Assembly: GCA_965208535.1 (NCBI GenBank)
Contig: CBDBOU010000003.1
Coordinates: forward strand, 1,765 to 65,764
Direction: 5' to 3'
From: Vicinamibacterales bacterium
GTDB lineage: Bacteria > Acidobacteriota > Vicinamibacteria > Vicinamibacterales > UBA8438
Length of the DNA stretch: 64,000 bases
Shown: positions 34,581-58,802 of the stretch, one piece after another
Layout: every line of letters starts with the position of its first letter
Numbering within the stretch: the stretch's first letter is position 1
Made by a program: the position numbers and the translations under genes
The notes under the pieces: generated by a model
What the model was told of the DNA's origin: nothing
Databases searched by the model: none
What the model saw: the letters and a program-made list of their open reading frames with translations, nothing else

Positions 34581-34589
34581 CTTTTCCTG

Positions 34590-34860: not shown

Positions 34861-35138
34861 CGGTGAAGCCTACAAACAAGCCGGGGAAAGGGTCGGGGCA
34901 AAGACGGGAGCGACCCGGCAAATCTGCCCGATTTGCGGCCCCGGCCGGCTCGTGTCGTCACACTCGCCGCCGAGTCCTCGGGTCGCTCCCGAAGCGGCAG
35001 TTTTCCGTGCCGGAAGGCTCTCGGCGCCCTGCGTCAACCGCCGTTTCTCCGGCGGCTGCCATCCCGACAGGACAGCCCGTTCGTCGTTCAGCCCGATGGA
35101 GCGCAGAACGCCCAGGCGGCTGCCGCCGCACCGCCGCG

Positions 35139-37673
35139 CTACTGCGGGACTTGCGCTGCACCCTCGCGCAGGTCGGCGGCCAGTCTCCGGGCCGTGTCGT
35201 GCGCGGGGTCGAGTTCGAGCGCGCGCTCCAGGCTCGCCAGCGCCTCGTCGCGGCGGCCGAGGAAGTACAGCGTGACGCCCGTGTTGGCGTGCACGGTCGG
35301 GTCGTCGGGCGCCAGGTCCGCGTGCGCGCGGTACAGCTCCAGGGCCTGCTCGTACTCCCGCCGCCCGAACCGCCACAGGGCCAGGTGGTCGAGCGCCTCG
35401 GCGTGTTCCGGGTCGCGCTCGACGGCGCTCTGGAAGTGCGTTGCGGCGTCGCCGTCGCGTCCGAGCCCCAGCAGGGCGCGGCCGGCCAGGTAGTGCGCGG
35501 TCGCCGCCGTGGCCGCATCCGCGCCCGGCGCGAAGCCGCGCTGCAGCGCTTCGAGCGCCTCGCCGTAGCGCTCCAGATCGAGCAGCGCGGCGCCGATGCC
35601 GACGTGGGCCGGGACGAAGTCGGGATCGATGCGCAAGGCTTCGCGGTACGAGGCGACGGCCTCGTCGCGGCGCCCCGCCGTCCGCAGCCCTTCGCCGATG
35701 ACGTGCAGCGCAGCCGGGTCGTCCGGGCGCGCGTCGCGGGCGCGGCGCAGGTACTGCTCGGCCTCGGCCGGGCGGCCCCCGTCGGCCAGCAGGTTCGAGA
35801 GCTGCATCAGCGGCGCCGGGCTCTCGGGCTCCAGCGCCGCGGCGCGCCGGAAGTGCGCGGCGGCGGCGGCGAGCCGACCCGCCTCGCGGGCCGCGCGGCC
35901 CGCGGCCATCGCGATCTCGCCCGCCGACGGCGCGTCCGGGTCCAGCGCGAGCGCCCGTTCGAGCGCCGCGAGCGCCTCGCCGTGGCGTCCCGACTCGAAG
36001 AGCGAGAGGCCGAGCCCGCCGTGCGCCGGCGCCAGATCCGGTTCCGCTTCCAGCGCGGCGCGGTACCTCTCGATGGCCTCGCCGTGGCGGCCCCGCCTGC
36101 GCAGCGCCTCCCCCAGGTTCTGGTGCGCGGCGGCGTCGCGGGGGTCGAGCCGCAGGGCGGTGCGCAGGACCGAGTCGGCCTCGTCGAACCCTTCCAGGCT
36201 CACGAGCACGCTGCCGAGGTTCACGTAGGCGTCCGCACTGAGCGGACGCCGCTCGACGCCGATGCGGGCGGCGGCGAGAGCCTCGTCGAGCCGGCCGGCT
36301 TCGGCCAGCGGACCCACCAGGTTGAGATGGGCGTCACGCGCGTTCGGATTGTGCGCGACGATGTGGCTGAAGAGGGTGACCCCGTCCCGGTAGATGCCCG
36401 CCTGCATCCACGTCAGCGTGCCGAGCAGCGCCAGCACCACGGCCAGCCCGCCGGCCGCGAGCCGCCGGTGGCCGGCCCGCAGGCGGCCGGCCCCGTGGGC
36501 GGCGGCGCCGACAGCCGCCGCCAGCACGCCGAGGCCGGCCAGGTACTGGAAGCGGTCGGCCACCAGCGAGAACTGCATGTAGCCGTAGTCGATGAAGCCG
36601 AGCACCGGAGAGAGCGTCACGGCGAACAGCAGCGCGCCCGCCAGCGGCCCCCGACCGAGTTGCCTCCTGCCCAGCCACAGCAGGGTGGCCAGCGCCATCG
36701 CCCCCAGGACGTACGTCCAGGCGACGGGGTCCGCGGCGTCGATCTCCCAGAGCGGGTAGATCACGATCAGGTCGGCCGGCCAGAGCAGCTTGCCAGCGTA
36801 GAACCACAGCGCGCGGGCCGCGATCAGCACGCGCTCGGCCAGCGAGTAGCCGAGGTCGAGCGGCTCGCGCGAGGCGTAGAACGCCAGGTCCGCCGCGGTG
36901 ACGGCCAGCGCCACGGCGAACATCGGCGCGAGCCGGACCACGTCGGCCCGCGTGACGCGGCCCGCCTGCCACCAGTGCCGGATGAGCAGGGCCGCCGGCA
37001 GCGTGACCACGACGGACTTCGACAGCAGGCCGGCCGTGAAGAGTCCGAGCGCGAGCAGGTAGCGCCCGGGCCGCGGCGCCTCGGTGAACCGGATCCAGGT
37101 CAGCGCGGCGGTCAGGTAGAACAGGGCCGAGAGCACGTCCTTGCGCTCGATGATCCAGGCGACCGACTCGACGTGCAGCGGATGGACGGCGAAGACCGCC
37201 GCGACGATCCAGGCGCCGGGCACGGCCAGACGCCCCATCAGGCGCCAAATCAGCAGCACGTTGACCAGGTGCAGCAGCACGTTGACCGCGTGGTAGCCGA
37301 GCGGCGCCAGCCCCCACAGCTTGTGCTCGATCCAGAAGCTGGTGTAGACGACGGGCCAGTAGTGCGCCTCCCCGGCGATGTCGCCGGGCGAGAACCAGAT
37401 GTTCCACAGCCCGGACCAGTCGTGCACGACGGGCTCCTCGACGAAGATCACGTCGTCCCAGACGAACCCGGCCCCCAGTGCCGGCAGGTAGGCTGTGACG
37501 GTGAGGGCGGCGAGCAGCAGCGCGCCGCGCAACCGCTGGCCGCCGACGCGGCCGGCTTCAGCCTGGGCAGATGCCAGCGGCCGGGTGCCGGCCTTCGAGC
37601 GTCCCGCGGACGAGGAGGCGCGCTCGGCGGCCAGCCGCTCGCGCCGCGTCAGGCGCTTCGCTGTCTTCTGCAT
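35139..37673 (-). CDS. TMTC-like (GT-C, DUF1736-type) protein O-mannosyltransferase with C-terminal TPR array
   Basis: FVWDD, HYWPV, GYHAVNVLLH, FAVHPLHVESVAWIIERKDVL, LLSK and ADRFQYL motifs in a multi-TM region, followed by about 10 TPRs. Start is 37673 or 37733. Confidence 0.87.
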   Translation of the reverse strand: MQKTAKRLTRRERLAAERASSSAGRSKAGTRPLASAQAEAGRVGGQRLRGALLLAALTVTAYLPALGAGFVWDDVIFVEEPVVHDWSGLWNIWFSPGDIAGEAHYWPVVYTSFWIEHKLWGLAPLGYHAVNVLLHLVNVLLIWRLMGRLAVPGAWIVAAVFAVHPLHVESVAWIIERKDVLSALFYLTAALTWIRFTEAPRPGRYLLALGLFTAGLLSKSVVVTLPAALLIRHWWQAGRVTRADVVRLAPMFAVALAVTAADLAFYASREPLDLGYSLAERVLIAARALWFYAGKLLWPADLIVIYPLWEIDAADPVAWTYVLGAMALATLLWLGRRQLGRGPLAGALLFAVTLSPVLGFIDYGYMQFSLVADRFQYLAGLGVLAAAVGAAAHGAGRLRAGHRRLAAGGLAVVLALLGTLTWMQAGIYRDGVTLFSHIVAHNPNARDAHLNLVGPLAEAGRLDEALAAARIGVERRPLSADAYVNLGSVLVSLEGFDEADSVLRTALRLDPRDAAAHQNLGEALRRRGRHGEAIERYRAALEAEPDLAPAHGGLGLSLFESGRHGEALAALERALALDPDAPSAGEIAMAAGRAAREAGRLAAAAAHFRRAAALEPESPAPLMQLSNLLADGGRPAEAEQYLRRARDARPDDPAALHVIGEGLRTAGRRDEAVASYREALRIDPDFVPAHVGIGAALLDLERYGEALEALQRGFAPGADAATAATAHYLAGRALLGLGRDGDAATHFQSAVERDPEHAEALDHLALWRFGRREYEQALELYRAHADLAPDDPTVHANTGVTLYFLGRRDEALASLERALELDPAHDTARRLAADLREGAAQVPQ

Positions 37674-38401
37674 GCTCTCGCCCGGCGGCGCCGGCACAGG
37701 GTCTCCCCGAGGCGGTGGCGGTAGAGCCGGCACAGATGGCGCAGGAAGTCGGCGTGCGTGCGCCAGTTCAGGTTGCTCCTGCCCTGCCGGCGGTCGACGA
37801 ACCGGATAGGCACTTCACGGACCCGGAGCCGGCCCCGCGCCATCAGCTCCAGGGCGACCTTGTAGCCGACGGGGCGCAGGCTGTCCAGGTCCGGCAAACG
37901 CCGCCGGTCGGCGGCGAAGAAGCCCGACAGCGGGTCCCGGCACTCCGCCAGCGGGCGCGCCAGCAGCGTGCCCAGCCGGGACACCAGCGCGCGGCGGCGG
38001 CCCCAGGCCGGGTCCACGGACGCGCCGGGCACGTAGCGGCTGCCGACCACGATGTCGCAGCCGTCGTCGAGCGCCGCCAGCAGGCCGGCGATCCGGTCGG
38101 GCGGGTGCGACAGGTCGGCGTCCATGACGACGAGGCGGTCGTGCCGCGCCAGCCGCATCCCGAGCAGGACCGAGAGCGCAAGGTCCCGGCGGGCCGCGCG
38201 GCGGGTCTCGATGCGCACCGGCAGGCGCCGGGCGATCTCGGCGACCACGGCCTCGCAGCCGTCCCGCGAGTCGTCGTCGACCAGGAGCAGCTCCCACTCG
38301 ACGCCCCGGTCCGACAACGCGGCATGCACGCCGGCGGCCAGGGCGGGCAGGTTCTCCGCCTCGCGCAGCGTCGGCACGACGATGGAGACGGCTTCGCCCA
38401 T
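37649..38401 (-). CDS. GT2 polyprenol-monophosphomannose synthase (DPM1/Ppm1-like)
   Basis: SIVVPTLREAENL, VDDDSRDG, VMDADLSHPP, VVGSRYVPG, DPLSGFFA, GYKVALE, EVPIRFVDRRQGRS. Confidence 0.9.
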   Translation of the reverse strand: MGEAVSIVVPTLREAENLPALAAGVHAALSDRGVEWELLLVDDDSRDGCEAVVAEIARRLPVRIETRRAARRDLALSVLLGMRLARHDRLVVMDADLSHPPDRIAGLLAALDDGCDIVVGSRYVPGASVDPAWGRRRALVSRLGTLLARPLAECRDPLSGFFAADRRRLPDLDSLRPVGYKVALELMARGRLRVREVPIRFVDRRQGRSNLNWRTHADFLRHLCRLYRHRLGETLCRRRRARACRRQRSA

Positions 38402-38420
38402 CTTCTCCGGCCGGCGCGAC

Positions 38421-41400
38421 CTACTCGGGTGCGCCGAGGTTGAGTATCCCGTAGAGGCCGACGCGGTGGTCGGCCCCGCCGTCGGGGCGGCCGTAGCGCT
38501 CGCCGAGCAGCTCGACCTCGACCGGCGTTGCCAGGTCGCCGCTGAAGCGCCCGAGCACGCCGAGCCGCGCCCCCAGTTGCACGCGTTGGGCCTCGCCTGT
38601 CCGGCCGTAGCCCACCAGCGGCGTCAGCAGCCGGTTGCCCGGCAGCATCCAGCCGTAGCCCAGCCGCGCGTCGACCCCGCCGTCGTGCCGGTTCGGTCCC
38701 GCCGCGTAGCTCTGGACGTGGTCCTGCCACAGCGACTCGGCCCCGTAGCCCGGCGCCCCCCAGTGCGGGCGCACCGACGCGGTCAGCCCCGGCTCGTAGT
38801 GCCCGCCGCCCGCCATCGCCGTCACGCTGAAGCCGTGCTCCTCGTAACCCGACGCGGTGTGCAGCAAGAGCCTGCGCCCCTGCGCCTCGATGCGCATCCT
38901 CCCGGCACTCACCCGCACCCCGGCGGCTGTCTCCAGTCCCAGGCCCGTCTGCCCGGCCCCGCCGTCGTGCCGCGTGCTCACCGCCCCGAACGGCGCCACC
39001 TGCATGCCGCCGGGGCCGCCCAGCGGCAGCGTCGCCTCGACTCCGGTCCGCAGCCGCCGCACCGCCGCCGCCAGCCCGTCGACCGTCTCCTCGCCACTGC
39101 CGGTCCGAAGCTCAGCCCACGACGCCTCGCCCCGCAGCGACAGCTCCACGCCCCCGGCCGCCCTGCCCAGCCGGTGCCGGCCCTCCAGCAGCCCCAGCCG
39201 CAGGTCCAGCGGGCTCGTCCCGCGCCGGCCATTGAGCGTCCGCACGTTCTCCGCCGTCCCCCGGCCCACGCCCGCCAGCGCCCACACCGCCGTGTCCCGG
39301 CCGCCGATGCGCACATACGGGTGCAGCACCGTCAGCTCCGTCCCCAGCCGGCCGCTCGAATAGCCCTGCCGCCACTCGCTGCCGCTGCCGCTGCGGCTCA
39401 CCGCCGCCCCCGCCAGCAGGTGCTCGGTGAGCTGCACGTCCACGCCGAGGTAGCCCGTCGCCAGGTCGCCCTCGTAGCCGGCCGCATCATCCGGCCCCGC
39501 CCACCGGAACGACTGCCGGTCGCCCTGGCCCCAGACCCGCCAGCGGCCAACGCCCGTACCGGGCGTCTCCGGGTCGCCCTGCCCGCCGAACGACAGCAGC
39601 ACGTCGGTGCCCAGCAGCATCTGGCCCCAGTCGGTCCCGGCCCCGCCCCCGAAGCCGCCGCCCATCAGGCCCATCCGCTGGAACCGCGGGTCGGCCGATG
39701 TCCCCGACAGGTCCCGCGGCGAGCGCCGCTGCCGCAGCGTCGCCGCCCGCAGCGACAGCCAGTGCGACTGCTCCAGGCTCCCGGCCCCCATCTGCTCCCA
39801 CGCGTCGGGCGTCAGCTGCTGGCCGCCGAGCATCAGCCGCATCGCGCCGTCGTCGTACTCCAGCCGCCGGCCGATGGCGATCCGCGCGCTCGACAGGTGC
39901 GCCCGCCCCAGCGCCGCCAGCGCGCCGGTCAGCACCTCCCGCACCAGCCCGTCGCCCACCGACACCCCGAACGTCTGCACTGCCGTCAGACCGTCGGGGT
40001 CGGCCGCCGTCACCGTCACGGTCGCCGTTCCCGTGACCACCGGCGAGAGCGTCAGCGTCGCGCCCACCACCGCCACCGTCACCGCCGACTCGTCCGAGGA
40101 CACCGCCGTGTAGCTCAGCGCGTCGCCGTCCACGTCGGTGAAGTACGGCGTCAGGTCCACCGTCGCCGTTCCGCCGCCCTCCTCGAGCGTCTGGTCCGGG
40201 ATGACCCCCACCGCCTCCGGCGCGTCGTTCACCGGCAGCACCGTCATCGTCACCGTCGCCGACGCCGTCAGGCCGCCCGGGTCCGCGATCGTGTAGCTGA
40301 AGCGGTCCGTGCCGTACCAGTTCAAGTCCGGCGAGTAGCGCACGCTGTTGTCGACGATGGCAGTCGCGCCGTGTGCGGCCGGGCCGGCCGAGACCACCGT
40401 CAGCGGGTCGCCGTCGACGTCCGTGTCGTTGGCCAGCACGTCGACCACCACCGCCACGTCCTCCAGCGTCTCCGCCTCGTCGTCGACCGCCTCCGGCGGG
40501 TCGTTCACCGGCGTCACCGTCACCACCACCGTCGCCTCCGACGTCAGCCCGCCCGGGTCCGTCGCCGTGTAGCTGAAACGGTCCTCGCCGTACCAGTTCA
40601 GGTCCGGCTCGTAGCGCACCCCGCCCGAGACCACCGTCGCCGTCCCGTTCTCCGGCGCCGTCACCGACGCCACCCGCAATCGCTCGCCGTCCGGGTCCGT
40701 GTCGTTCGACAGCACGTCGATCACCAACGGTGTGTCCTCGGGCGTCTCCGCCCGGTCGTCCTTCGCCTCCGGCGACTCCGGCGCGTCGACCACCCGTACG
40801 GTCACCTGCGCCTTCGCCTCGTACTCCCCGTCCCCCGCCGTCACCTGCAACTCGAACTCGGACGGACCCGACTCGAAGTCCTCGCCGCCGCCGGTGTAGC
40901 TCACCTCGCCGCCGCGCCGCGACACCGTGAAGCGGTCGCCGTCGCCCGCCGACAGCGCGTAGCGCAGCCGGTCGCCGTCGGCGTCGCTCGCGCCCACCGT
41001 CCCCAACGCCACCGGCGTGTCGCGTCCCGAGGCATTCTCCGGCAGGTCGAACGTGTAGCTCGACTGCCCGAACTCCGGCGGCCGGTTCGGCTCGTCGTCG
41101 TCGAGCAGCGTCAGCGACGTGCCCTCGACCGACAGCCCCACCTCGGTCGTGCCCGTGATCGCCACCCGCTGGTCCGGCTCGTCCTTCGTGTCGTCCACCG
41201 GCGTCAGGTCGAACGACGCGGCGGCGCTGGCCGCGTCCGCCGGGACCTCGACCGCGAACACCGACGGCGTGGCCGCATACTCGTCCGCGTCCTCGGCGAC
41301 ACTCACCGTCACCACCGTCGCTTCGCCGCGCGCTCCCGCGACGAGCGTCGCCGTCACCGTCACCGCCGTCGTGCCCGCGCCTTCGGAGACCGACGAGGGG

Positions 41401-47400: not shown

Positions 47401-50400
47401 GTCGCCGTCGGCTGCGTCGAAAGCCGAACCGTGTACTCGGCGTCGTCCCCCTCGGCCACTCCCAGCGCCGTCGTCGACAGCGTCAGCTCCACCTCGTCGT
47501 CGTCGGTCACCGTCACCGAAACGCTCGCCGTCTCCCCGGCGTAGTCGCCGCCCGAGGCCGTGTGCAAGAGCGTCGCCGCGTCGTTCGCGCCGTCGTCGTC
47601 CTCCCCGGCCGTCACCGTCACCGTCTGCGCCGTGTTCCACGTCGCCGTCGTGAACGTCAGAGAGGCCGTGTCCAGAGTCAGGTCCGTGCCCGAATGGCCC
47701 GTGACCGCCACGGTGACGGTCGCCGTCGGCTGCGTCGCAAGCCGCACCGTGTACTCGCCGTCGTCCCCCTCGGCCACCCCTAGCGCCGTCGCCGACAGCG
47801 TCAGCTCCACGTCGTCGTCGTCGGTCACCGTCACCGAAACGCTCGCCGTCTCCCCGGCGTAGTCGCCGCCCGAGGCCGTGTGCAGCAGCGTCGCCGCGTC
47901 GTTCGCCCCGTCGTCGTCCTCGCCGGCCGAAACCGTCACCGTCTGCGCCGTGTTCCACGTCGCCGTCGTGAACGTCAGAGAGATCGAATCCAAGGTGAGG
48001 TCGGTGCCGGCCTGGCCCGTGATCGCAACCGTCACCTGAGCCGTCGGCTGCGTCGAAAGCCGAACCGTGTACTCGGCGTCGTCCCCCTCGGCCACCCCCA
48101 GCGCCGTCGCCGACAGCGTCAGCTCCACCTCGTCGTCGTCGGTCACCGTCACCGCCACGTTCGCCGTCTCGCCCGCGTAGTCCCCGCCAGAGGCCGTGTG
48201 CAGCAGCGTCGCCGCGTCGTTCGCCCCGTCGTCGTCCTCCCCGGCCGAGACCGTCACCGTCTGCGCCGTGTTCCACGTCGCCATCGTGAACGTCAACGAC
48301 GCCGTGTCCAGCGTCAGGTCCGTACCGGCCTGGCCCGTGATCGCCACCGTCACCTGGGCCGTCGGCTGCGTCGCCAGCCGAACCGTGTACTCGCCGTCGT
48401 CCCCCTCGGTGACCCCCAGCGCCGTCGTCGACACCGTCAGCCCCGCCGTATCGTCGTCGGTCACCGTCACCGACACGCTCGCCGTCTCGCCCGCGTAGTC
48501 CCCACCCGAGGCCGTGTGCAAGAGCGTCGCCGCATCGTTCGCCGCGTCGTCGTCCTCGCCAGCCGAGACCGTCACCGTCTGCGCCGTGTTCCACGTCGCC
48601 GTCGTGAACGTCAGGCTCGCCGTGTCCAGCGTCAGGTCCGTGCTGGCGGTCCCCGTGATCGCGACGGTCACCTGCGCCGTCGGCTGTGTCGCCAGCCGAA
48701 CCGTGTACTCGCCGTCGTCTCCCTCGGCAACCCCCAGCGCCGTCGTCGACAGCGTCAGACCCACCTCGTCGTCGTCGGTCACCGTCACCGCCACGCTCGC
48801 CGTCTCCCCCGCGTAGTCGCCCCCGGACGCCGTGTGCAGCAGCGTCGCCGCGTCGTTCGCTCCGTCGTCGTCCTCACCAGCCGAGACCGTCACCGTCTGC
48901 GCCGTGTTCCACGTCGCCGTCGTGAACGTCAGAGACGCCGTGTCCAGCGTCAGGTCCGTGCCCGAGTGCCCGGTGACCGCCACGGTGACGGTCGCCGTCG
49001 GCTGCGTCGAAAGCCGAACCGTGTACTCGCCGTCGTCGCCTTCGGCCACCCCCAGCGCCGTCGTCGACAGCGTCAGCTCCACGTCGTCGTCGTCGGTCAC
49101 CGTCACCGCCACGTTCGCCGTCTCGCCCGCGTAGTCCCCGCCAGAGGCCGTGTGCAGCAGCGTCGCCGCGTCGTTCGCCCCGTCGTCGTCCTCGCCGGCC
49201 GAGACCGTCACCGTCTGCGCCGTGTTCCACGTCGCCGTCGTGAACGTCAACGACGCCGTGTCCAGCGTCAGGTCCGTGCCCGAATGGCCCGTGACCGCCA
49301 CGGTGACGGTCGCCGTCGGCTGCGTCGCAAGCCGCACCGTGTACTCGCCGTCGGCCCCCTCGGCAACCCCCAGCGCCGTCGTCGACAGCGTCAGCTCCAC
49401 CTCGTCGTCGTCGGTCACCGTCACCGCAACGCTCGCCGTCTCGCCCGCGTAGTCCCCGCCAGAGGCCGTGTGCAGCAGCGTCGCCGCGTCGTTCGCCCCG
49501 TCGTCGTCCTCGCCGGCCGAGACCGTCACCGTCTGCGCCGTGTTCCACGTCGCCGTCGTGAACGTCAACGACGCCGTGTCCAGCGTCAGGTCCGTACCGG
49601 CCTGGCCCGTGATCGCCACCGTCACCTGGGCCGTCGGCTGCGTCGCCAGCCGAACCGTGTACTCGCCGTCGTCCCCCTCGGTGACCCCCAGCGCCGTCGT
49701 CGACACCGTCAGCCCCGCCGTATCGTCGTCGGTCACCGTCACCGACACGCTCGCCGTCTCGCCCGCGTAGTCCCCACCCGAGGCCGTGTGCAAGAGCGTC
49801 GCCGCATCGTTCGCCGCGTCGTCGTCCTCGCCGGCCGAGACCGTCACCGTCTGCGCCGTGTTCCACGTCGCCGTCGTGAACGTCAACGACGCCGTGTCCA
49901 GCGTCAGGTCCGTGCCCGAGTGCCCGGTGACCGCCACGGTGACGGTCGCCGTCGGCTGCGTCGAAAGCCGAACCGTGTACTCGCCGTCGTCGCCTTCGGC
50001 CACCCCCAGCGCCGTCGTCGACAGCGTCAGCTCCACGTCGTCGTCGTCGGTCACCGTCACCGCGACGCTCGCCGTCTCGCCCGCGTAGTCGCCCCCCGAG
50101 GCCGTGTGCAACAGCGTCGCCGCGTCGTTCGCCCCGTCGTCGTCCTCGCCCGCCGTCACCGTCACCGTCTGCACCGTGTTCCACGTCGCCGTCGTGAACG
50201 TCAGCGACGCCGTGTCCAGCGTCAGGTCCGTGCTCGCCTGGCCCGTGACCGCCACGGTGACCGTCGCCGTCGGCTGCGTCGAAAGCCGAACCGTGTACTC
50301 GGCGTCGTCCCCCTCGGCCACTCCCAGCGCCGTCGTCGACAGCGTCAGCTCCACCTCGTCGTCGTCGGTCACCGTCACCGAAACGCTCGCCGTCTCGCCC

Positions 50401-53400
50401 GCGTAGTCGCCCCCCGTGGCCGTGTGAACCAGCGTCGCCGCGTCGTTCGCCCCGTCGTCGTCCTCCGCCGCCGAGACCGTCACCGTCTGCGCCGTGTTCC
50501 ACGTCGCCGTCGTGAACGTCAGAGAGGTCGAATCCAGGCTCAGGTCCGTTCCCGAATGGCCTGTGACCGCGACCGTCACCTGCGCCGTCGGCTGCGTCGA
50601 AAGCCGAACCGTGTACTCGGCGTCGTCCCCCTCGGTCACCCCCAGCGCCGTCGTCGACAGCGTCAGCTCCACCTCGTCGTCGTCGGTCACCGTCACCGAA
50701 ACGCTCGCCGTCTCCCCGGCGTAGTCGCCGCCCGAGGCCGTGTGCAAGAGCGTCGCCGCGTCGTTCGCCCCGTCGTCGTCCTCCCCGGCCGAGACCGTCA
50801 CCGTCTGCGCCGTGTTCCACGTCGCCGTCGTGAACGTCAGAGAGGTCGAATCCAAGGTGAGGTCGGTGCCTGCCTGGCCCGTGACCGCAACCGTCACCTG
50901 AGCCGTCGGCTGCGTCGAAAGACGGACCGTGTACTCGCCGTCGTCCCCCTCGGCCACCCCCAGCGACGTCGCCGACAGCGTCAGCTCCACCTCGTCGTCG
51001 TCGGTCACCGTCACCGAAACGCTCGCCGTCTCGCCCGCGTAGTCGCCCCCGGACGCCGTGTGCAGCAGCGTCGCCGCGTCGTTCGCCCCGTCGTCGTCCT
51101 CCCCGGCCGAGACCGTCACCGTCTGCGCCGTGTTCCACGTCGCCGTCGTGAACGTCAGAGAGGCCGCACCCAGCGTCAGGTCCGTGCCCGAGTGCCCGGT
51201 GATGGCGACCGTCACCTGAGCCGTCGGCTGCGTCGAAAGCCGAACCGTGTACTCGCCGTCGTCCCCTTCGGCCACCCCCAGCGCCGTCGCCGACAGCGTC
51301 AGCTCCACATCGTCGTCGTCGGTCACCGTCACCGAAACGCTCGCCGTCTCGCCCGCGTAGTCGCCCCCCGTGGCCGTGTGAACCAGCGTCGCCGCGTCGT
51401 TCGCCCCGTCGTCATCCTCGCCCGCCGTCACCGTCACCGTCTGCGCCGTGTTCCACGTCGCCGTCGTGAACGTCAGCGAGGTCGAATCCAAGGTGAGGTC
51501 GGTGCCGGCCTGGCCCGTGATCGCAACCGTCACCTGAGCCGTCGGCTGCGTCGAAAGCCGAACCGTGTACTCGCCGTCGGCCCCCTCGGCAACCCCCAGC
51601 GCCGTCGCCGACAGCGTCAGCTCCACCTCGTCGTCGTCGGTCACCGTCACCGCAACGCTCGCCGTCTCCCCGGCGTAGTCGCCGCCAGAGGCCGTGTGCA
51701 AGAGCGTCGCCGCGTCGTTCGCCCCGTCGTCGTCCTCGCCCGCCGTCACCGTCACCGTCTGCGCGGTGTTCCACGTCGCCGTCGTGAACGTCAGCGAGGT
51801 CGCATCCAGCGTCAGGTCCGTGCCTGCCTGGCCCGTGATCGCAACCGTCACCTGAGCCGTCGGCTGCGTCGAAAGCCGAACCGTGTACTCGCCGTCGTCC
51901 CCCTCGGCCACCCCCAGCGCCGTCGTCGACAGCGTCAGCTCCACCTCGTCGTCGTCGGTCACCGTCACCGCGACGCTCGCCGTCTCCCCCGCGTAATCGC
52001 CCCCGGACGCCGTGTGCAGCAGCGTCGCCGCGTCGTTCGCCCCGTCGTCGTCCTCGCCAGCCATTACCGTCACCGTCTGCACCGTGTTCCACGTCGCCGT
52101 CGTGAACGTCAGCGACGCCGTGTCCAGCGTCAGGTCCGTGCTCGCCTGGCCCGTGACCGCCACGGTGACCGTCGCCGTCGGCTGCGTCGAAAGACGGACC
52201 GTGTACTCGCCGTCGTCCCCCTCGTCCACCCCCAGCGCCGTCGCCGACAGCGTCAGCTCCACCTCGTCGTCGTCGGTCACCGTCACCGCAACGCTCGCCG
52301 TCTCCCCCGCGTAGGCAGGGTCGGGCGACGAGGCCGTGTGCAGCAGCGTCGCCGCGTCGTTCGCTCCGTCGTCGTCCTCACCGGCAGAGACCGTCACCGT
52401 CTGCGCCGTGTTCCATCGCGTCCTCGTGAACGTCAGGAGCGCGGGGGCGACCGTCAGGTCCGTGCCTGCCTGACCCGTGATGGCCACCGTCACCTGAGCC
52501 CTCGGCTGCGACAACAGCTTCACCGTGTACTCGCCGTCGTTTCCCTCGTCCACCCCCAGCGCCGTCGTCGACAGCGTCAGACCCACCTCGTCGTCGTCGG
52601 TCACCGTCACCGCAACGCTCGCCGTCTCCCCCGCGTAGTCCCCACCCGAGGCCGTGTGCAGCAGCGTCGCCGCGTCGTTCGTCGCGTTGTCGTCCTCCGC
52701 CGCCGAGACCGTCACCGTCTGGACCGTGTTCCAACTCGCCGTCGTGAACGTCAGAGACGCCGCGGCGGGGGCCAGCGTCAGGTCCGTGCCCGAGTGCCCG
52801 GTGATGGCGACCGTCACCGTCGCCGTCGGCTGCGTCGCCAGCCGGACCGTGTACTCGCCGTCGTTTCCCTCGTCCACCCCCAGCGCCGTCGTCGACAGTG
52901 TCAGGCCCACCTCGTCGTCGTCGGTCACCGTCACCGCGACGCTCGCCGTCTCCCCCGCGTAGTCCCCGCCCGACGCCGTGTGCACCAGCGTCGCCGAGTC
53001 GTTCGCCCCGTCGTCGTCCTCACCGGCCGAGACCGTCACCGTCTGGACCGTGTTCCAACTCGCCGTCGTGAACGTCAGAGACGCCGCGGCGGGGGCCAGC
53101 GTCAGGTCCGTGCCCGAGTGTCCGGTGATCGCCACCGTCACCGTCGCCGTCGGCTGCGTCGCCAGACGGACCGTGTAGTCACCGGCGCCTCCCTCGGCAA
53201 CCCCCAGCGCCGTCGTCGACAGCGTCAGGCCCACCTCGTCGTCGTCGGTCACCGTCACCGCGACGCTCGCCGTCTCCCCCGCGTAGTCCCCGCCCGACGC
53301 CGTGTGCACCAGCGTCGCCGCGTCGTTCGACGCGTCGTCGTCCTGTGCGGCCGAGACCGTCACCGTCTGCGCCGTGTTCCAACTCGCCGTCGTGAACGTC

Positions 53401-56063
53401 AGAGAGGTCGCACCCAGCGTCAGGTCCGTACCCGAGTGCCCGGTGATGGCCACCGTCACCTGAGCCGTCGGCTGCGTCGAAAGCCGCACCGTGTACTCGC
53501 CGTTGTCCCCCTCATCCACCCCCAGCGCCGTCGTCGACAGCGTCAGCTCCACCTCGTCGTCGTCGGTCACCGTCACCGAAACGCTCGCCGTCTCCCCCGC
53601 GTAGTCCCCACCCGACGCCGTGTGCAGCAGCGTCGCCGCGTCGTTCGCCCCGTCGTCGTCCTCGCCCGCCGTCACCGTCACCGTCTGCGCGGTGTTCCAC
53701 GTCGCCGTCGTGAAGGTCAGACTGGTCGAATCCAAGGTGAGGTCGGTGCCTGCCTGGCCCGTGATCGCAACCGTCACCTGAGCCGTCGGCTGCGTCGAAA
53801 GCCGCACCGTGTACTCGCCGTTGTCCCCCTCATCCACCCCCAGCGCCGTCGTCGACAGTGTCAGGCCCACCTCGTCGTCGTCGGTCACCGTCACCGCGAC
53901 GCTCGCCGTCTCCCCCGCGTAGTCGCCCCCCGACGCCGTGTGCACCAGCGTCGCCGAGTCGTTCGCCCCGTCGTCGTCCTGTGCGGCCGTCACCGTCACC
54001 GTCTGCGCCGTGTTCCACGTCGCCGTCGTGAACGTCAGAGAGGTCGCACCCAGCGTCAGGTCCGTGCCCGAGTGCCCGGTGATGGCGACCGTCACCGTCG
54101 CCGTCGGCTGCGTCGCCAGACGCACCGTGTAGTCGCCGTTGTCCCCCTCATCCACCCCCAGCGCCGTCGTCGACAGCGTCAGGCCCACCTCGTCGTCGTC
54201 GGTCACCGTCACCGCGACGCTCGCCGTCTCGCCCGCGTAGTCGCCACCCGAGGCCGTGTGCAGCAGCGTCGCCGCGTCGTTCGACGCGTCGTCGTCCTCC
54301 CCAGCCGAGACCGTCACCGTCTGCGCCGTGTTCCAACTCGCCGTCGTGAACGTCAGAGACGCCGCGGCGGGGGCCAGCGTCAGGTCTGTGCCCGAGTGTC
54401 CGGTGATCGCCACCGTCACCGTCGCCGTCGGCTGTGTCGCCAGACGGACCGTGTAGTCGCCGTTGTCCCCCTCATCCACCCCCAGCGCCGTCGTCGACAG
54501 CGTCAGGCCCACCTCGTCGTCGTCGGTCACCGTCACCGCGACGCTCGCCGTCTCGCCCGCGTAGTCGCCACCCGAGGCCGTGTGCACCAGCGTCGCCGCG
54601 TCGTTCGCCCCGTCGTCGTCCTCACCGGCCGAGACCGTCACCGTCTGCGCCGTGTTCCACGTCGCCGTCGTGAACGTCAGAGACGCCGCGGCGGGGGCCA
54701 GCGTCAGGTCTGTGCCCGAGTGTCCGGTGATCGCCACCGTCACCGTCGCCGTCGGCTGCGTCGAAAGCCGCACCGTGTAGTCGCCGTCGCCTCCCTCGGC
54801 CACCCCCAGCGCTGTCGTCGACAGCGTCAGGCCCACCTCGTCGTCGTCGGTCACCGTCACCGCAACGCTCGCCGTCTCGCCCGCGTAGGCGGGGTCCGGC
54901 GACGAGGCCGTGTGCAGCAGCGTCGCCGCGTCGTTCGCTCCGTCGTCGTCCTCACCGGCAGAGACCGTCACCGTCTGCGCCGTGTTCCATCGCGTCCTCG
55001 TGAACGTCAGGAGCGCGGGGGCGACCGTCAGGTCCGTGTCCGCCTGGCCCGTGATGGCCACCGTCACCTGAGCCCTCGGCTGCGTCCCAAGACGGACCGT
55101 GTACTCGCCGTCGTCCCCCTCGGCCACCCCCAGCGCCGTCGTCGACAGCGTCAGCCGCGGCTCGTCGTCGGTCACCGTCACCGAGACGCTCGCCGTCTCG
55201 CCCGCGTAGGCGGGGTCGTGCGACGAGGCCGTGTGCAGCAGCGTCGCCGTGTCGTTGTCCTCGTCGGCGTCCTGGCCCGCAGAGACCGTCACCGTCTGCA
55301 CCGTGTTCCACGTCGCCGTCGTGAACGTCAGAGAGGTCCTATCCAGGCTCAGGTCCGTACTTGAGTGCCCACTGATGGCGATCGTCACCGTCGCCGTCGG
55401 CGGCGTCGCCAACCCCACCGTGTAGTCCGCGGCGTCCCCCTCGGCCACACTCAGCGCCGTCGGCGACACCCTGATCGCCGGCCCGTCGTCGTCGACGATT
55501 CGGATTATCGCGTGCGTAATGCCCCAGGTCGCCCCCGGCGGGAGTACCCCCCCCAAAAAGACACTGAATTCCTCGGTCTCCTCGGCGACATTGTCGTCGA
55601 GGATGGTGATGCTGATGCTCCCCGTTAGCGAGTTGGCCGGGATGGTCGCGGATCCATTGGAGACGACCCGGTAGTCGTTGATGTTCGCACTGGCGCCCGA
55701 GGTGTTGTACGACAGCTGTAGAGCGCTACCCAATGCCACATCAGCGCCGCGTGCAACTGTGAGCGTAGCGGTGCCAACGTCTTCATAGACCGTGTACAGG
55801 CCTTGCTCGAACCCCAGGGTATTGTCCTGCGCCTGCGCGGGGGAGGAAGCCAACATCACGAGTCCGAGGAGGACGCAGACAAGAAGCAGGGAACCGGGCC
55901 GTGCCTTGTCCGACACGCGGCCCGGCGGCAATCGGTCCCTCCGCGAAGGCCGGAGGGAGAGGGGAGGGTAGGCGGGGTTAGTAGTTACATACGAGAACGC
56001 TCTGCGCTCTGCGCTCTGCGCTCTGCGCTCTGCGCTCTGCGCTGACGAGCGAATCACGTCCAT
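38421..56063 (-). CDS. Giant repetitive adhesin autotransporter (5880 aa)
   Basis: Signal peptide ending SSPAQAQ, Calx-beta tip, about 44 Thr/Asp-rich 106-aa repeats, cadherin and Big_9 domains, C-terminal barrel homologous to adhesin 1. The start codon is uncertain. Confidence 0.92.
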   Translation of the reverse strand: MDVIRSSAQSAERRAQSAERRAFSYVTTNPAYPPLSLRPSRRDRLPPGRVSDKARPGSLLLVCVLLGLVMLASSPAQAQDNTLGFEQGLYTVYEDVGTATLTVARGADVALGSALQLSYNTSGASANINDYRVVSNGSATIPANSLTGSISITILDDNVAEETEEFSVFLGGVLPPGATWGITHAIIRIVDDDGPAIRVSPTALSVAEGDAADYTVGLATPPTATVTIAISGHSSTDLSLDRTSLTFTTATWNTVQTVTVSAGQDADEDNDTATLLHTASSHDPAYAGETASVSVTVTDDEPRLTLSTTALGVAEGDDGEYTVRLGTQPRAQVTVAITGQADTDLTVAPALLTFTRTRWNTAQTVTVSAGEDDDGANDAATLLHTASSPDPAYAGETASVAVTVTDDDEVGLTLSTTALGVAEGGDGDYTVRLSTQPTATVTVAITGHSGTDLTLAPAAASLTFTTATWNTAQTVTVSAGEDDDGANDAATLVHTASGGDYAGETASVAVTVTDDDEVGLTLSTTALGVDEGDNGDYTVRLATQPTATVTVAITGHSGTDLTLAPAAASLTFTTASWNTAQTVTVSAGEDDDASNDAATLLHTASGGDYAGETASVAVTVTDDDEVGLTLSTTALGVDEGDNGDYTVRLATQPTATVTVAITGHSGTDLTLGATSLTFTTATWNTAQTVTVTAAQDDDGANDSATLVHTASGGDYAGETASVAVTVTDDDEVGLTLSTTALGVDEGDNGEYTVRLSTQPTAQVTVAITGQAGTDLTLDSTSLTFTTATWNTAQTVTVTAGEDDDGANDAATLLHTASGGDYAGETASVSVTVTDDDEVELTLSTTALGVDEGDNGEYTVRLSTQPTAQVTVAITGHSGTDLTLGATSLTFTTASWNTAQTVTVSAAQDDDASNDAATLVHTASGGDYAGETASVAVTVTDDDEVGLTLSTTALGVAEGGAGDYTVRLATQPTATVTVAITGHSGTDLTLAPAAASLTFTTASWNTVQTVTVSAGEDDDGANDSATLVHTASGGDYAGETASVAVTVTDDDEVGLTLSTTALGVDEGNDGEYTVRLATQPTATVTVAITGHSGTDLTLAPAAASLTFTTASWNTVQTVTVSAAEDDNATNDAATLLHTASGGDYAGETASVAVTVTDDDEVGLTLSTTALGVDEGNDGEYTVKLLSQPRAQVTVAITGQAGTDLTVAPALLTFTRTRWNTAQTVTVSAGEDDDGANDAATLLHTASSPDPAYAGETASVAVTVTDDDEVELTLSATALGVDEGDDGEYTVRLSTQPTATVTVAVTGQASTDLTLDTASLTFTTATWNTVQTVTVMAGEDDDGANDAATLLHTASGGDYAGETASVAVTVTDDDEVELTLSTTALGVAEGDDGEYTVRLSTQPTAQVTVAITGQAGTDLTLDATSLTFTTATWNTAQTVTVTAGEDDDGANDAATLLHTASGGDYAGETASVAVTVTDDDEVELTLSATALGVAEGADGEYTVRLSTQPTAQVTVAITGQAGTDLTLDSTSLTFTTATWNTAQTVTVTAGEDDDGANDAATLVHTATGGDYAGETASVSVTVTDDDDVELTLSATALGVAEGDDGEYTVRLSTQPTAQVTVAITGHSGTDLTLGAASLTFTTATWNTAQTVTVSAGEDDDGANDAATLLHTASGGDYAGETASVSVTVTDDDEVELTLSATSLGVAEGDDGEYTVRLSTQPTAQVTVAVTGQAGTDLTLDSTSLTFTTATWNTAQTVTVSAGEDDDGANDAATLLHTASGGDYAGETASVSVTVTDDDEVELTLSTTALGVTEGDDAEYTVRLSTQPTAQVTVAVTGHSGTDLSLDSTSLTFTTATWNTAQTVTVSAAEDDDGANDAATLVHTATGGDYAGETASVSVTVTDDDEVELTLSTTALGVAEGDDAEYTVRLSTQPTATVTVAVTGQASTDLTLDTASLTFTTATWNTVQTVTVTAGEDDDGANDAATLLHTASGGDYAGETASVAVTVTDDDDVELTLSTTALGVAEGDDGEYTVRLSTQPTATVTVAVTGHSGTDLTLDTASLTFTTATWNTAQTVTVSAGEDDDAANDAATLLHTASGGDYAGETASVSVTVTDDDTAGLTVSTTALGVTEGDDGEYTVRLATQPTAQVTVAITGQAGTDLTLDTASLTFTTATWNTAQTVTVSAGEDDDGANDAATLLHTASGGDYAGETASVAVTVTDDDEVELTLSTTALGVAEGADGEYTVRLATQPTATVTVAVTGHSGTDLTLDTASLTFTTATWNTAQTVTVSAGEDDDGANDAATLLHTASGGDYAGETANVAVTVTDDDDVELTLSTTALGVAEGDDGEYTVRLSTQPTATVTVAVTGHSGTDLTLDTASLTFTTATWNTAQTVTVSAGEDDDGANDAATLLHTASGGDYAGETASVAVTVTDDDEVGLTLSTTALGVAEGDDGEYTVRLATQPTAQVTVAITGTASTDLTLDTASLTFTTATWNTAQTVTVSAGEDDDAANDAATLLHTASGGDYAGETASVSVTVTDDDTAGLTVSTTALGVTEGDDGEYTVRLATQPTAQVTVAITGQAGTDLTLDTASLTFTMATWNTAQTVTVSAGEDDDGANDAATLLHTASGGDYAGETANVAVTVTDDDEVELTLSATALGVAEGDDAEYTVRLSTQPTAQVTVAITGQAGTDLTLDSISLTFTTATWNTAQTVTVSAGEDDDGANDAATLLHTASGGDYAGETASVSVTVTDDDDVELTLSATALGVAEGDDGEYTVRLATQPTATVTVAVTGHSGTDLTLDTASLTFTTATWNTAQTVTVTAGEDDDGANDAATLLHTASGGDYAGETASVSVTVTDDDEVELTLSTTALGVAEGDDAEYTVRLSTQPTATVTVAVTGHSGTDLTLDTASLTFTTATWNTAQTVTVSAGEDDDGANDAATLLHTASGGDYAGETASVSVTVTDDDEVELTLSATALGVAEGDDAEYTVRLSTQPTATVTVAVTGQASTDLTLDTASLTFTTASWNTVQTVTVTAGEDDDGANDAATLLHTASGGDYAGETASVAVTVTDDDEADLTLSTTALGVAEGGDGEYTVRLATQPSAQVTVAITGHSGTDLTLDTASLTFTTATWNTAQTVTVSAGEDDDGANDAATLLHTASGGDYAGETASVAVTVTDDDDVGLTLSTTALGITEGDDGEYTVRLATQPTAQVTVAITGQAGTDLSLDATSLTFTTATWNTAQTVTVSAGEDDDGANDAATLLHTASGGDYAGETASVAVTVTDDETVGLTLSTTALGVAEGDDGEYTVRLSTQPTAQVTVAITGHSGTDLTLDTASLTFTTASWNTVQTVTVSAGEDDDGANDAATLLHTASGGDYAGETASVAVTVTDDETVGLTVSTTALGVAEGGSNTYTVRLSTEPTAQVTVAVTGQAGTDLTLDTASLTFTTASWNTAQTVTVTAGEDDDGANDAATLLHTASGGDYAGETASVAVTVTDDESVGLTLSTTALRVAEGGSNTYTVRLATQPTAQVTVAVTGQAGTDLTLDTASLTFTTASWNTAQTVTVTAGEDDDAANDAATLLHTASGGDYAGETASVAVTVTDDESVGLTLSTTALGVTEGGSNTYTVRLATQPTAQVTIAVTGQAGTDLTLDTASLTFTTASWNTAQTVTVTAGEDDDAANDAAALLHTASGGDYAGETASVAVTVTDDDTAGLTLSTTALGVTEGDDGEYTVRLATQPSATVTVAVTGQAGTDLTLDTASLTFTTATWNTAQTVTVTAGEDDDAAADAATLLHTASGGDYAGETASVAVTVTDDESVGLTLSTTALGVAEGDDGEYTVRLSTQPTATVTVAVTGQAGTDLTLDSTSLTFTTATWNTAQTVTVSAGEDDDAANDSATLLHTASGGDYAGETASVAVTVTDDESVGLTLSTTALGVTEGDDGEYTVRLSTQPTAQVTVTITGHSGTDLTLDTASLTFTTATWNTAQTVTVSAGEDDDAANDAATLLHTASGGDYAGETASVTVTVTDDDTAGLTLSTTALGVAEGADGEYTVRLATQPTATVTVAVTGHSGTDLTLDTASLTFTTATWNTAQTVTVSAGEDDDAANDAATLLHTASGGDYAGETASVAVTVTDDETVGLTLSTTALGLTEGEDASYTVRLSTQPTAQVTVAVTGQTGTDLTLDSTSLIFTTATWNTAQTVTVSAGEDDDAANDAATLVHTASGGDYAGETASVSVTVTDDETVGLTLSTTALGLAEGDDGEYTVRLSTQPTAQVTVAVTGHSGTDLTLDTASLTFTAATWNTAQTVTVSAGEDDDADNDTATLLHTASGGDYASETAELAVTVTDDETVGIVLSTSSLGLAEGEDGTYTVRLSTEPTAQVTVAVTGHSGTDLTLDTASLTFTTATWSTAQTVTVSAAEDDDADNDTATLLHTASGGDYASETAELAVTVTDDESVGIVLSTSSLGLAEGEDGTYTVRLSTEPTAQVTVAVTGHSGTDLSLDTTSLTFTTATWNTAQTVTVSAGEDDDADDDTATLTHTASGGDYASETAELSVTVTDDESVGIVLSTSSLGLAEGEDGTYTVRLSTEPTAQVTVAVTGHSGTDLSLDTASLTFTTATWNTAQTVTVSAGEDDDADNDTATLTHTASGGDYASETAELAVTVTDDESVGLVLSTTALGVAEGADGEYTVRLSTQPTAQVTVAVTGHSGTDLSLDTTSLTFTTATWSTAQTVTVSAGEDDDADDDTATLVHTASGGDYAGETAELAVTVTDDETPETAGVVLSPSTLTVAEGEGGTYTVRLSTEPTGQVTVAVTGHSGTDLTLDTASLTFTTASWNTAQTVTVTAAQDDDAEDDEATLAHTASGGGYGSVTADLAVTVDDDEDDGEPVSGDVVLSVSPSSVSEGAGTTAVTVTATLVAGARGEATVVTVSVAEDADEYAATPSVFAVEVPADAASAAASFDLTPVDDTKDEPDQRVAITGTTEVGLSVEGTSLTLLDDDEPNRPPEFGQSSYTFDLPENASGRDTPVALGTVGASDADGDRLRYALSAGDGDRFTVSRRGGEVSYTGGGEDFESGPSEFELQVTAGDGEYEAKAQVTVRVVDAPESPEAKDDRAETPEDTPLVIDVLSNDTDPDGERLRVASVTAPENGTATVVSGGVRYEPDLNWYGEDRFSYTATDPGGLTSEATVVVTVTPVNDPPEAVDDEAETLEDVAVVVDVLANDTDVDGDPLTVVSAGPAAHGATAIVDNSVRYSPDLNWYGTDRFSYTIADPGGLTASATVTMTVLPVNDAPEAVGVIPDQTLEEGGGTATVDLTPYFTDVDGDALSYTAVSSDESAVTVAVVGATLTLSPVVTGTATVTVTAADPDGLTAVQTFGVSVGDGLVREVLTGALAALGRAHLSSARIAIGRRLEYDDGAMRLMLGGQQLTPDAWEQMGAGSLEQSHWLSLRAATLRQRRSPRDLSGTSADPRFQRMGLMGGGFGGGAGTDWGQMLLGTDVLLSFGGQGDPETPGTGVGRWRVWGQGDRQSFRWAGPDDAAGYEGDLATGYLGVDVQLTEHLLAGAAVSRSGSGSEWRQGYSSGRLGTELTVLHPYVRIGGRDTAVWALAGVGRGTAENVRTLNGRRGTSPLDLRLGLLEGRHRLGRAAGGVELSLRGEASWAELRTGSGEETVDGLAAAVRRLRTGVEATLPLGGPGGMQVAPFGAVSTRHDGGAGQTGLGLETAAGVRVSAGRMRIEAQGRRLLLHTASGYEEHGFSVTAMAGGGHYEPGLTASVRPHWGAPGYGAESLWQDHVQSYAAGPNRHDGGVDARLGYGWMLPGNRLLTPLVGYGRTGEAQRVQLGARLGVLGRFSGDLATPVEVELLGERYGRPDGGADHRVGLYGILNLGAPE
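41450..55490 (-). repeat. About 44 tandem 318/324-bp repeats
   Basis: Unit LTLSTTALGVAEGDDGEYTVRLSTQPTA..ASVAVTVTDDDE. The 318-bp period also shows in the regularly spaced antisense shadow ORFs. Confidence 0.95.
55998..56043 (-). repeat. Heptanucleotide simple sequence repeat (AGCGCAG) x 6.6
   Basis: Same 7-mer as at 14661, at the 5' end of adhesin 2. Confidence 0.95.
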
Positions 56064-56076: not shown

Positions 56077-56100
56077 GGCGCGCGGCCCCGGAGACTCCAT

Positions 56101-58317: not shown

Positions 58318-58329
58318 CGGGATGCCTCC

Positions 58330-58600: not shown

Positions 58601-58802
58601 TCATGACGTTTGGCTGGCAGTGTCGGCTGGCAGGACGACACTTGGCGCACCTAAATAGTGTTCGGTCGAAAACCCCGCAAGTGATTGATTCTACAGGGTG
58701 TAGCGCGGATTCAGGGTGGCGAAGATCGTCCGATTGCGGTATTCTCGGAGGTGATTCCCCGAGGATCGACGCACTCGGGCAATATCTTCGCGAATTGACA
58801 TC

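Follow-up and report, generated by a model that had tools for sequence, protein, structure and literature searches.

Can a bacterium carry, side by side in its genome, the enzymes for a lipid-linked O-glycosylation of proteins and the adhesin that receives the sugar? The question is raised by three neighboring minus-strand genes in a stretch of 64,000 nucleotides from a Vicinamibacterales bacterium (contig CBDBOU010000003.1, positions 1,765 to 65,764; the whole stretch is called the window in the following). They encode a giant threonine-rich adhesin, a soluble glycosyltransferase of family 2 (GT2) and a GT-C-type membrane protein that continues into tetratricopeptide repeats (TPRs). The original prediction, made from the sequence of the window, regarded them as donor synthase, transferase and substrate of one system, comparable to the animal pathway in which TMTC proteins mannosylate cadherins. 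Our answer is that a periplasmic lipid-linked O-hexosylation of the neighboring adhesin, probably with mannose, would best account for the locus; our confidence in this reading is evenly balanced.

The proposed coupling of the three genes was confirmed together with the coordinates of their open reading frames (ORFs, Table 1). The stop codon of the adhesin gene and the ATG of the GT2 gene are separated by 19 bp, with a GGAG-like site in the gap, and the end of the GT2 gene overlaps the ATG of the GT-C/TPR gene by 25 nt. No terminator-like site was found between the three genes on the minus strand. The genes of the cassette are translationally coupled here, and the short gap together with the overlap argues for selection of co-expression. 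An alternative GTG start of the GT-C/TPR ORF at position 37733 (35139..37733) would add 20 residues; the 844 residues counted from the ATG are a common length among the closest homologues.

For the GT2 protein (P0002), which matches the Pfam GT2 family with 83.3 bits, the best hit among solved proteins is the dolichyl-phosphate-mannose (Dol-P-Man) synthase of Pyrococcus furiosus (5MLZ; E 3.2e-41, 144.7 bits, residues 4-228). We mapped the residues named for Dol-P-Man synthases (DPMSs) in PMC5526996 onto GT2 through the 5MLZ alignment. Ten out of 13 key residues are present (E12, D39, D89, D91, H94, R117, R131, S135, K178, R202), and R117, R131 and S135 are described as conserved in bona fide DPMSs (Gandini 2017, PMC5526996); Q93 is substituted by Ser, F177 by Tyr and K208 by Asn (Lys in the family consensus). 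GT2 stops after the catalytic domain and has no counterpart of the membrane domain of the archaeal enzyme. None of the NCBIfam equivalog cut-offs was reached by GT2, all 12 matches lying far below (e.g. Dol-P hexose transferase with 31.4 vs 375 bits); PgfS is a weak match among them (E 1.2e-11, again far below cut-off), and no model specific for bacterial Ppm1 occurs in this set. Judged by homology, GT2 is clearly Dol-P-Man-synthase-like, in line with the polyprenol-phosphate-mannose synthase of the original prediction. Mannose as the transferred sugar is our best guess, not a result.

The GT-C character of the transferase (P0001) is indicated by a match to the GT39-like GT-C family PMT_2 (PF13231; 30.1 bits, cut-off 26.1) in addition to many TPR models, and PMT_2 was also matched by 38 out of 60 relatives. 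An AlphaFold model based on 38 sequences (pLDDT 83.8) comprises 11 membrane helices followed by approximately 12 TPRs, the topology being deduced from the loops that carry the motifs and from the basic character of the N-terminus. A wide structure search of 48,161 solved chains, independent of Foldseek, matched the membrane part (approximately residues 37-454) to STT3B (6s7t_A; Z 19.5, 337 aa, rmsd 4.8), Pmt1-Pmt2 (6p2r_B; Z 18.8), archaeal AglB (3waj_A; Z 17.9) and Pmt4 (9e61_A; Z 17.8), with alignments of 317-344 residues. One must keep in mind that helical models can reach middling Z scores by chance. The TPR part matched the TPR superhelix of the O-GlcNAc transferase OGT with Z 28.1 at 24% identity. 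Sequence-based searches of solved structures were less informative for the membrane part: the GT-C domain as a single sequence had no match at E up to 10, and a GT-C profile found TPR proteins only, via its last 45 positions. Foldseek with the whole 844-residue model likewise returned TPR proteins only. Neither a TMTC structure nor ArnT was among the best 50 fold matches listed, which is not evidence of absence because the GT-C domain had not been modeled on its own. All three sequences that had been read as TMTC motifs (FVWDD, FAVHPLHVESVA and ADRFQYL) are present, and the residues at their cores do not vary among 38 members of the family. The invariant positions include W72-D73-D74, H164-P165-H167, R177-K178-D179, K219..T224 and R374..Y377, as well as the histidines H104, H117, H128, H164 and H167.

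Pairs of a GT2 and a GT-C enzyme commonly decorate glycans (PMC11127046), and ArnC is the second-best solved match of our GT2. The pair could thus act on a non-protein acceptor such as lipid A or the core of lipopolysaccharide (LPS), exopolysaccharide or the cell wall, in the manner of ArnC/ArnT or of the three-component GtrB/GtrC systems, with the adhesin being unrelated. TPRs also occur in polysaccharide export proteins, and weak NCBIfam matches to two of these, PgaA and BcsC, were obtained. We consider such an acceptor improbable. GT2 scores 144.7 bits with the DPMS but only 56 with ArnC and 31 with GtrB, and the best fold matches of the GT-C part are the protein-modifying enzymes given above. 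The combination of a GT-C domain with a C-terminal TPR superhelix is the architecture of the TMTCs, and the closest solved TPR structure belongs to a protein glycosyltransferase. Adhesin neighbors are moreover enriched at related loci (17 out of 76 vs 3.7% of positions in this genome, see below).

How close the transferase is to the TMTCs depends on the comparison made, and the TMTC-like transferase of the original prediction stands in architecture, in part of its motifs and in its homology to bacterial DUF1736 proteins. TMTC_DUF1736 (PF08409), which covers the loop that connects TM7 with TM8, had no match at E up to 10 in the membrane domain or in the whole genome, and it was not among the 25 families listed (of 65 matched) for 60 transferase relatives. 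The model exceeds its cut-off in 32 out of 301 genomes of the same phylum (including one unpublished genome, G193), and in none of four other sampled genomes of the window's own family. When compared by BLASTP with six DUF1736-bearing ORFs, all of them bacterial, the transferase showed 21-30% identity (E 1.8e-12 to 1.7e-26), rising to 38% in a short match of 138 residues to L082; the matches lie within residues 27-670, mostly 45-535. A profile-profile comparison (hhalign) of the transferase with five of these six proteins gave a probability of 99.9% (E 4e-34, 411 columns). Full-length prokaryote homologues of TMTCs are known and uncharacterised according to Eisenhaber 2021 (PMC7801869), where the TMTC motifs are given as M1 DD, M3 RxD, M4 KE(T/Q)xxT, M5 DW and M7 (D/E)RxxY. 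Three of them, DD (D73-D74), RxD (R177-K178-D179) and (D/E)RxxY (D373-R374..Y377), are invariant or nearly so in our 38 sequences and coincide with the motifs of the DUF1736 proteins. In M4 the K-E is changed to K219-S220 (KSVVVT) and in M5 the DW/DY to I305-Y306, so both acidic residues are replaced. These acidic residues are the metal ligands proposed in TMTC models (PMC7801869), and Ser and Ile occupy both sites throughout the subfamily (window 36750-37020; residues 219-224 and 298-309). The subfamily may use a different metal site, or none. In a protein atlas bacterial PMT_2/TPR clusters came first and a diatom cluster with DUF1736 in 25% of its members appeared at rank 19, which we regard as a lead only. 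Our reading of these similarities is that the transferase probably works like the TMTCs and is distantly related to them, as a distinct bacterial subfamily that fails the defining Pfam test of the family.

The candidate acceptor is as large and as rich in threonine as had been claimed. A long N-terminal extension precedes its signal-peptide-like stretch. The repeat anchors number 44 and are spaced by 106 aa in 36 out of 43 intervals, and TVTV occurs 62 times. The average repeat contains 23.5 Thr and 7.3 Ser, where about 23 and 6 had been stated. Three repeats were modeled as tandem immunoglobulin (Ig)-like sandwiches with pLDDT 89.9. The Foldseek matches of this model were Ig-like arrays of a generic kind, among them ciliary proteins of the ASH type, pilins, repeats of RTX adhesins and titin; the Calx-beta domains of NCX1 had the top identity with 17-19%, and protocadherins reached 10-11%. 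Among 18 Pfam families matched by the three scanned repeats at E up to 10 there was no cadherin and no Calx-beta, the best being fn3_6 with 30.3 bits. A cadherin identity of the 106-aa repeats was thus rejected. Domains of the cadherin type do occur, but only between the repeats and the barrel, where PF00028 matches with 29.5 bits (cut-off 28.8). The term "cadherin-like" is therefore fair for the whole adhesin and not for the repeats that are the proposed acceptor. The assignment as an autotransporter needs a qualification: the beta-domain in the window reaches 22.9 bits with PF03797, under the cut-off of 26, and five out of ten aligned family members match it, the best with E 4e-10 (a segment from L053 that contains a stop was omitted from the alignment).

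Taken together, the three proteins could act as follows. The soluble GT2 would transfer a hexose, most probably mannose from GDP-mannose, to a polyprenyl (undecaprenyl) phosphate at the inner face of the inner membrane, as its homologues suggest, and the lipid-linked sugar would then be flipped to the periplasmic face. There, the 11-helix GT-C domain may pass the sugar on to Ser or Thr by means of its periplasmic WDD loop, a role consistent with fold, topology and conserved residues, while the superhelix of about 12 TPRs in the periplasm may hold the protein acceptor. The gene linkage points to the passenger of the neighboring autotransporter as this acceptor, Sec-exported and still periplasmic. 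It would offer about 1000 Thr in alternating T-V-T-V strand patterns on approximately 44 Ig-like repeats, and the glycosylated passenger would finally leave through the C-terminal beta-domain.

To what extent does the linkage support this assignment? The 8.4-Mb genome contains five paralogues of the transferase (100, 97, 93, 93 and 78% identity). In all five cases the GT2 gene lies directly upstream and a gene for a Thr-rich autotransporter upstream of GT2. Of these adhesins, four have remained intact, with lengths of 3425 to about 5885 aa and 17-19% Thr, whereas the fifth is a broken remnant. The genome has four ORFs that reach both 1500 aa and 17% Thr, and all four adjoin the enzymes; nine other Thr-rich ORFs, mostly with 10-13.5% Thr, do not adjoin them directly. 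The remnant belongs to a decaying cassette (L003; G000:C1:255600-275599, about 6500-9900), in which GT2 and GT-C/TPR are intact and the adhesin is reduced to a 689-aa frame, the frame being lost in the Big_9 region.

Outside this genome we searched contigs from one genome per species, where 241 stretches encode relatives of the transferase; all counts of loci refer to the best 76 of these 241. In 17 out of 76 loci, from five phyla, the 10-kb surroundings include a Thr-rich ORF of 700 aa or more, compared to a base rate of 3.7% of positions in the present genome (G000), and a homologue of the barrel domain was found in ten of the 76. A GT2 of at least 50% identity is located within 10 kb in 33 out of 70 assessable loci, 22 times directly upstream, and four out of five genomes whose locus was without GT2 encode a homologue of 59-64% identity elsewhere. 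Three loci from other genomes show the gene order adhesin-GT2-GT-C again, namely L005 of the Acidobacteriota, L050 of the Gammaproteobacteria and L054 of the Holophagales. In each of the three enzyme-bearing genomes of the genus the enzyme adjoins such an adhesin, and in G001 and G002 the adhesin most similar to the query is the neighbor of the enzyme.

One could object that the adjacency carries no meaning, and that a mobile segment rich in insertion sequences (IS) once joined an adhesin gene to the enzyme pair and was then multiplied by segmental duplication. Multi-copy IS do bracket the cassette, the window copy is 95% identical to the copy on contig C1 from window position 34880 onward, and the family bears signs of horizontal transfer. 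We nevertheless consider this explanation very improbable, since the same order is found with barrel domains of only 34-36% identity in a gammaproteobacterium (L050) and in the Holophagales genome (L054), the paralogue of 78% identity retains the arrangement on the other strand, and the gap and overlap of the genes argue for a selected co-expression.

The proposal that the cassette glycosylates its own adhesin has to be weighed against a number of observations which count against it. No flippase gene is found among the three genes of the cassette (no search of the genome for GtrA-type genes was made), and GT2 has no membrane anchor. The metal-contacting Q93 of the DPMS is replaced, and the identity of the sugar comes from homology alone. 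The five cassettes of this genome are paralogous duplicates and not independent events. At 59 out of 76 related loci a giant Thr-rich neighbor is absent, 31 out of 70 have no GT2 within 10 kb, and the adhesin gene stands immediately upstream of only one of the 22 directly adjacent GT2 genes. Adhesins with the same repeat are numerous in G001, G003 and G005 and mostly remote from the enzyme; about one in six adhesins adjoins the enzyme in G001, and in G005, where giant ORFs number more than 30, few do. Repeat adhesins also occur in eight out of 38 relatives that do not possess the enzyme (e.g. G011 and G012). The base rate of adhesin genes was measured in G000 only and is clearly high in G005. 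The superfamily of the membrane domain is vast, with 98,253 clusters at 50% clustering (E up to 1e-3; the best 150 are all close bacterial relatives, E <1e-120), and a single acceptor class is therefore unlikely for all its members.

Several of these observations would be expected if GT2 and GT-C/TPR formed a general system for periplasmic protein O-glycosylation, the adhesin being at most one abundant client and its adjacency a result of co-mobilisation in symbiosis islands. The many loci without an adhesin neighbor fit such a system, as does the ratio of one enzyme gene to about six repeat adhesins in G001 and of three to more than 30 giant ORFs in G005. Tandem arrays of two to four GT-C/TPR paralogues at some loci point in the same direction, and the streptococcal Pgf and GtrB/PgtC2 systems are described as modifying several Ser/Thr-rich proteins (PMC12041528). 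What speaks for a dedicated pairing is its occurrence in five out of five cases in this genome, covering all four ORFs with at least 17% Thr, the position of the most query-like adhesin beside the enzyme in G001 and G002, and the translational coupling of the genes here. On this balance we regard a general system as unlikely, though as a contender that deserves some weight. The recurring linkage of the three genes, which the original prediction had called for, is borne out by the paralogues and by L005, L050 and L054, and fails at the majority of related loci. The linkage to giant Thr-rich proteins is thus real and enriched, but facultative.

A further aspect concerns the distribution of the cassette. 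Relatives of the membrane domain number more than 6247 in 90% clusters, the best 120 with 71-93% identity. The 76 loci have 53-84% identity, come from at least nine phyla and lie in many cases on contigs of megabase scale; Acidobacteriota, Spirochaetota, Gamma- and Alphaproteobacteria, Binatota, Latescibacterota, Nitrospirota, Chloroflexota, Gemmatimonadota, Thermodesulfobacteriota and others are represented. At E up to 1e-100 the subfamily is present in two out of 14 other genomes of the same genus, in none of ten other genera of the family and in none of 16 other families of the order. A quick maximum-likelihood (ML) tree required 15 changes of the phylum label (minimum 8, mean of shuffled labels 33.7); phyla are intermingled in several clades whose SH-aLRT reaches 95 or more, and the ingroup branches are short in comparison to the DUF1736 outgroup. 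This pattern fits a horizontal spread that may have been followed by local diversification. Contigs matching at 90-99% cover 29-30 out of 30 bins of 35139-38700 in all four runs examined, which stem from four studies and are all labelled as sponge metagenome. One such contig bridges 37155-38700, i.e. the start of the GT-C gene, GT2 and the end of the adhesin gene. The best explanation is that the cassette represents an accessory, horizontally moving module, which is multi-copy and IS-flanked here, patchy in close relatives and highly conserved across phyla in bacteria of sponge metagenomes. The identity across phyla, the presence in only two out of 40 close relatives and the sponge-metagenome DNA together make it a candidate for a shared symbiosis trait.

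One might go further and propose that a TMTC-like O-mannosylation module spreads horizontally, and that with its help bacteria from many phyla living in sponges cover their giant adhesins of Ca-binding beta-sandwiches with O-mannose, copying the animal-specific mark set on cadherins by TMTC enzymes, for attachment to, or tolerance by, the sponge. The metazoan pathway of cadherin O-mannosylation would then have a counterpart in bacteria, with a TMTC-like enzyme whose metal-site residues are altered. We advance it as speculation and rather doubt it.

Two observations on individual genomes and loci may be added. Tandem arrays of two to four GT-C/TPR paralogues per 21-kb locus were seen in L033, L038, L044, L064 and other loci from several phyla, which suggests that the acceptor specificity may have diversified. 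The small gammaproteobacterial genome G005 (L013/L019, 2.6 Mb) contains 143 matches to the three-repeat query, distributed over more than 30 giant frames of up to 7746 aa; these frames make up an extraordinary share of the genome.

Table 1. Genes, protein domains and adjacent mobile elements of the cassette, in window coordinates (aa, residues of the respective protein; TM, transmembrane).
Feature	Position	Strand	Description	Basis
Giant adhesin gene	38421..56063	-	5880 aa, 19.3% Thr	ORF list and translation
Signal-peptide-like stretch of adhesin	55830..55907	-	aa 53-78; K-A-R-P-G, then hydrophobic run to AQA	Read by eye from the translation
N-terminal Calx-beta domain	55548..55826	-	aa 80-172	Pfam PF03160, 37.4 bits (cut-off 27)
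About 44 tandem Thr-rich 106-aa repeats	41454..55505	-	aa 187-4870, 22% Thr; predicted Ig-like beta-sandwiches, acidic DDD linkers	
Cadherin (PF00028) domain, then three Cadherin_4/Cadherin_5/Big_9 domains	39864..41057	-	aa about 5003-5400	
C-terminal autotransporter-type beta-domain	38424..39803	-	aa about 5421-5880	
Soluble GT2 gene, product like polyprenyl-phosphate-mannose synthase	37649..38401	-	250 aa, without membrane domain; GGAG-like site before ATG	
GT-C/TPR gene	35139..37673 (from ATG)	-	844 aa	
GT-C membrane domain	36384..37673	-	aa 1-430; 11 predicted TM helices; WDD at 72-74 in first periplasmic loop	
About 12 C-terminal TPRs of transferase	35139..36383	-	aa 431-844, predicted periplasmic	
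Multi-copy IS110-family element upstream of cassette	56838..58614	.	Transposase ORF 57019..58500 (-); 14 other full-length copies in the genome, all >99% identical	
IS110-family transposase gene directly downstream of cassette	33597..34961	-		

The surroundings of the cassette are marked by mobile DNA. The regions 29675-34961 and 56838-64000 are densely occupied by IS from a number of families, among them DDE group 1, a Mutator type with a broken frame and two IS110 types. As most of the flanking IS have at least ten near-identical copies, the genome can be called IS-rich. The idea that the two IS110-type genes delimit a composite transposon was considered and dropped: the multi-copy matches of 700 bp or more do not include the downstream gene, and duplication sets in only inside the 3' end of this gene (34880). 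Just upstream of the adhesin start, a small ORF (56054-56434, minus strand) resembles, when its translation is read by eye, a helix-turn-helix protein of the XRE/HigA type whose C-terminal half is disturbed. The window holds a second giant adhesin gene at 13479-23243 on the plus strand (3254 aa; 11.5% Thr over an open frame of 3304 aa; LapA, PKD, Cadherin and Cadherin_4/5/Big_9 domains). It contains the repeat type of the cassette adhesin at 69% identity (about 18903-19838), and the gene lies 12 kb from that of the transferase. The remaining part of the window includes an RND efflux operon (5499-11532, minus strand) with an AcrB-type pump, a HlyD-type adaptor and an outer-membrane factor, followed by an ISAZ013-type transposase at 11616-12857.

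What is new about such a system has to be stated with some care. The kind of system is already known, namely a GT-A synthase of a polyprenyl-phosphate sugar together with a GT-C enzyme acting on exported Ser/Thr-rich proteins. As this is established for Ser/Thr-rich surface proteins including adhesins (PMC12041528, PMC5882110), the novelty claimed in the original prediction was overstated. A published description of the present cassette was not found in a literature search with subscription journals outside its coverage. If our reading is true, the cassette would to our knowledge be the first lipid-linked, TPR-guided route of protein O-glycosylation tied to an autotransporter of a diderm, and it would provide a function for part of the bacterial GT-C + TPR proteins, which form a superfamily of very large size that is still uncharacterised.

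With the animal TMTC1-4 and DPM1 the cassette shares an N-terminal GT-C domain of 11 TM helices followed by TPRs that are lumenal or, here, periplasmic, the first, second and fifth loops carrying DD, RxD and (D/E)RxxY, respectively (motifs according to PMC7801869). Further common features are the homology to bacterial carriers of TMTC_DUF1736, a DPMS-like donor synthase that possesses no membrane domain, and as candidate acceptor an adhesion protein of the Ca-binding beta-sandwich type with Thr on the strands. It differs from them in the missing DUF1736 match and in the changes of KE(T/Q)xxT to KSVVVT and of DW to I-Y. The acceptor repeats are moreover not Pfam cadherins, and the reaction would take place in a bacterial periplasm with undecaprenyl rather than dolichyl carriers.

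Among bacterial systems, the actinobacterial Ppm1/Pmt pair likewise combines a polyprenyl-phosphate-mannose synthase with a PMT-type GT-C enzyme acting on secreted Ser/Thr-rich proteins (PMC5882110). Pmt, however, has no TPR domain, and these are chromosomal core genes of monoderm actinobacteria and not cassettes with a dedicated giant autotransporter in diderms. The streptococcal systems Pgf (PgfS/PgfM1/PgfE/PgfM2) and GtrB/PgtC2 also use a GT-A synthase of a lipid-linked sugar and a GT-C enzyme on Ser/Thr-rich extracytoplasmic proteins, and their reported targets include the adhesins Cnm and WapA (PMC12041528; PMC5856776). Their sugars are GalNAc/GlcNAc or glucose, though, their acceptors are disordered instead of beta-sandwich repeats, and their transferases are without TPRs and belong to Gram-positive hosts. 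ArnC/ArnT, by which aminoarabinose is added to lipid A, resembles our pair in that a GT2 makes an undecaprenyl-phosphate sugar which a GT-C enzyme transfers in the periplasm; in that system it is lipid A that receives the sugar, ArnC has a membrane anchor and a score far below that of the DPMS, and ArnT is without TPRs. Autotransporter glycosylation of the Aah, TibC and HMW1C type has in common with the present locus a dedicated glycosyltransferase whose gene lies next to that of a large adhesin. The enzymes of that type work in the cytoplasm with nucleotide sugars as donors, whereas the machinery described here is predicted to be periplasmic with a lipid-linked donor. In comparison to all of these, the characteristic features of the present system are a TMTC-like GT-C + TPR transferase with altered motif residues in a diderm host, a candidate acceptor in the form of an autotransporter with folded beta-sandwich repeats, and its packaging as a mobile, multi-copy module found across phyla in sponge-associated bacteria.

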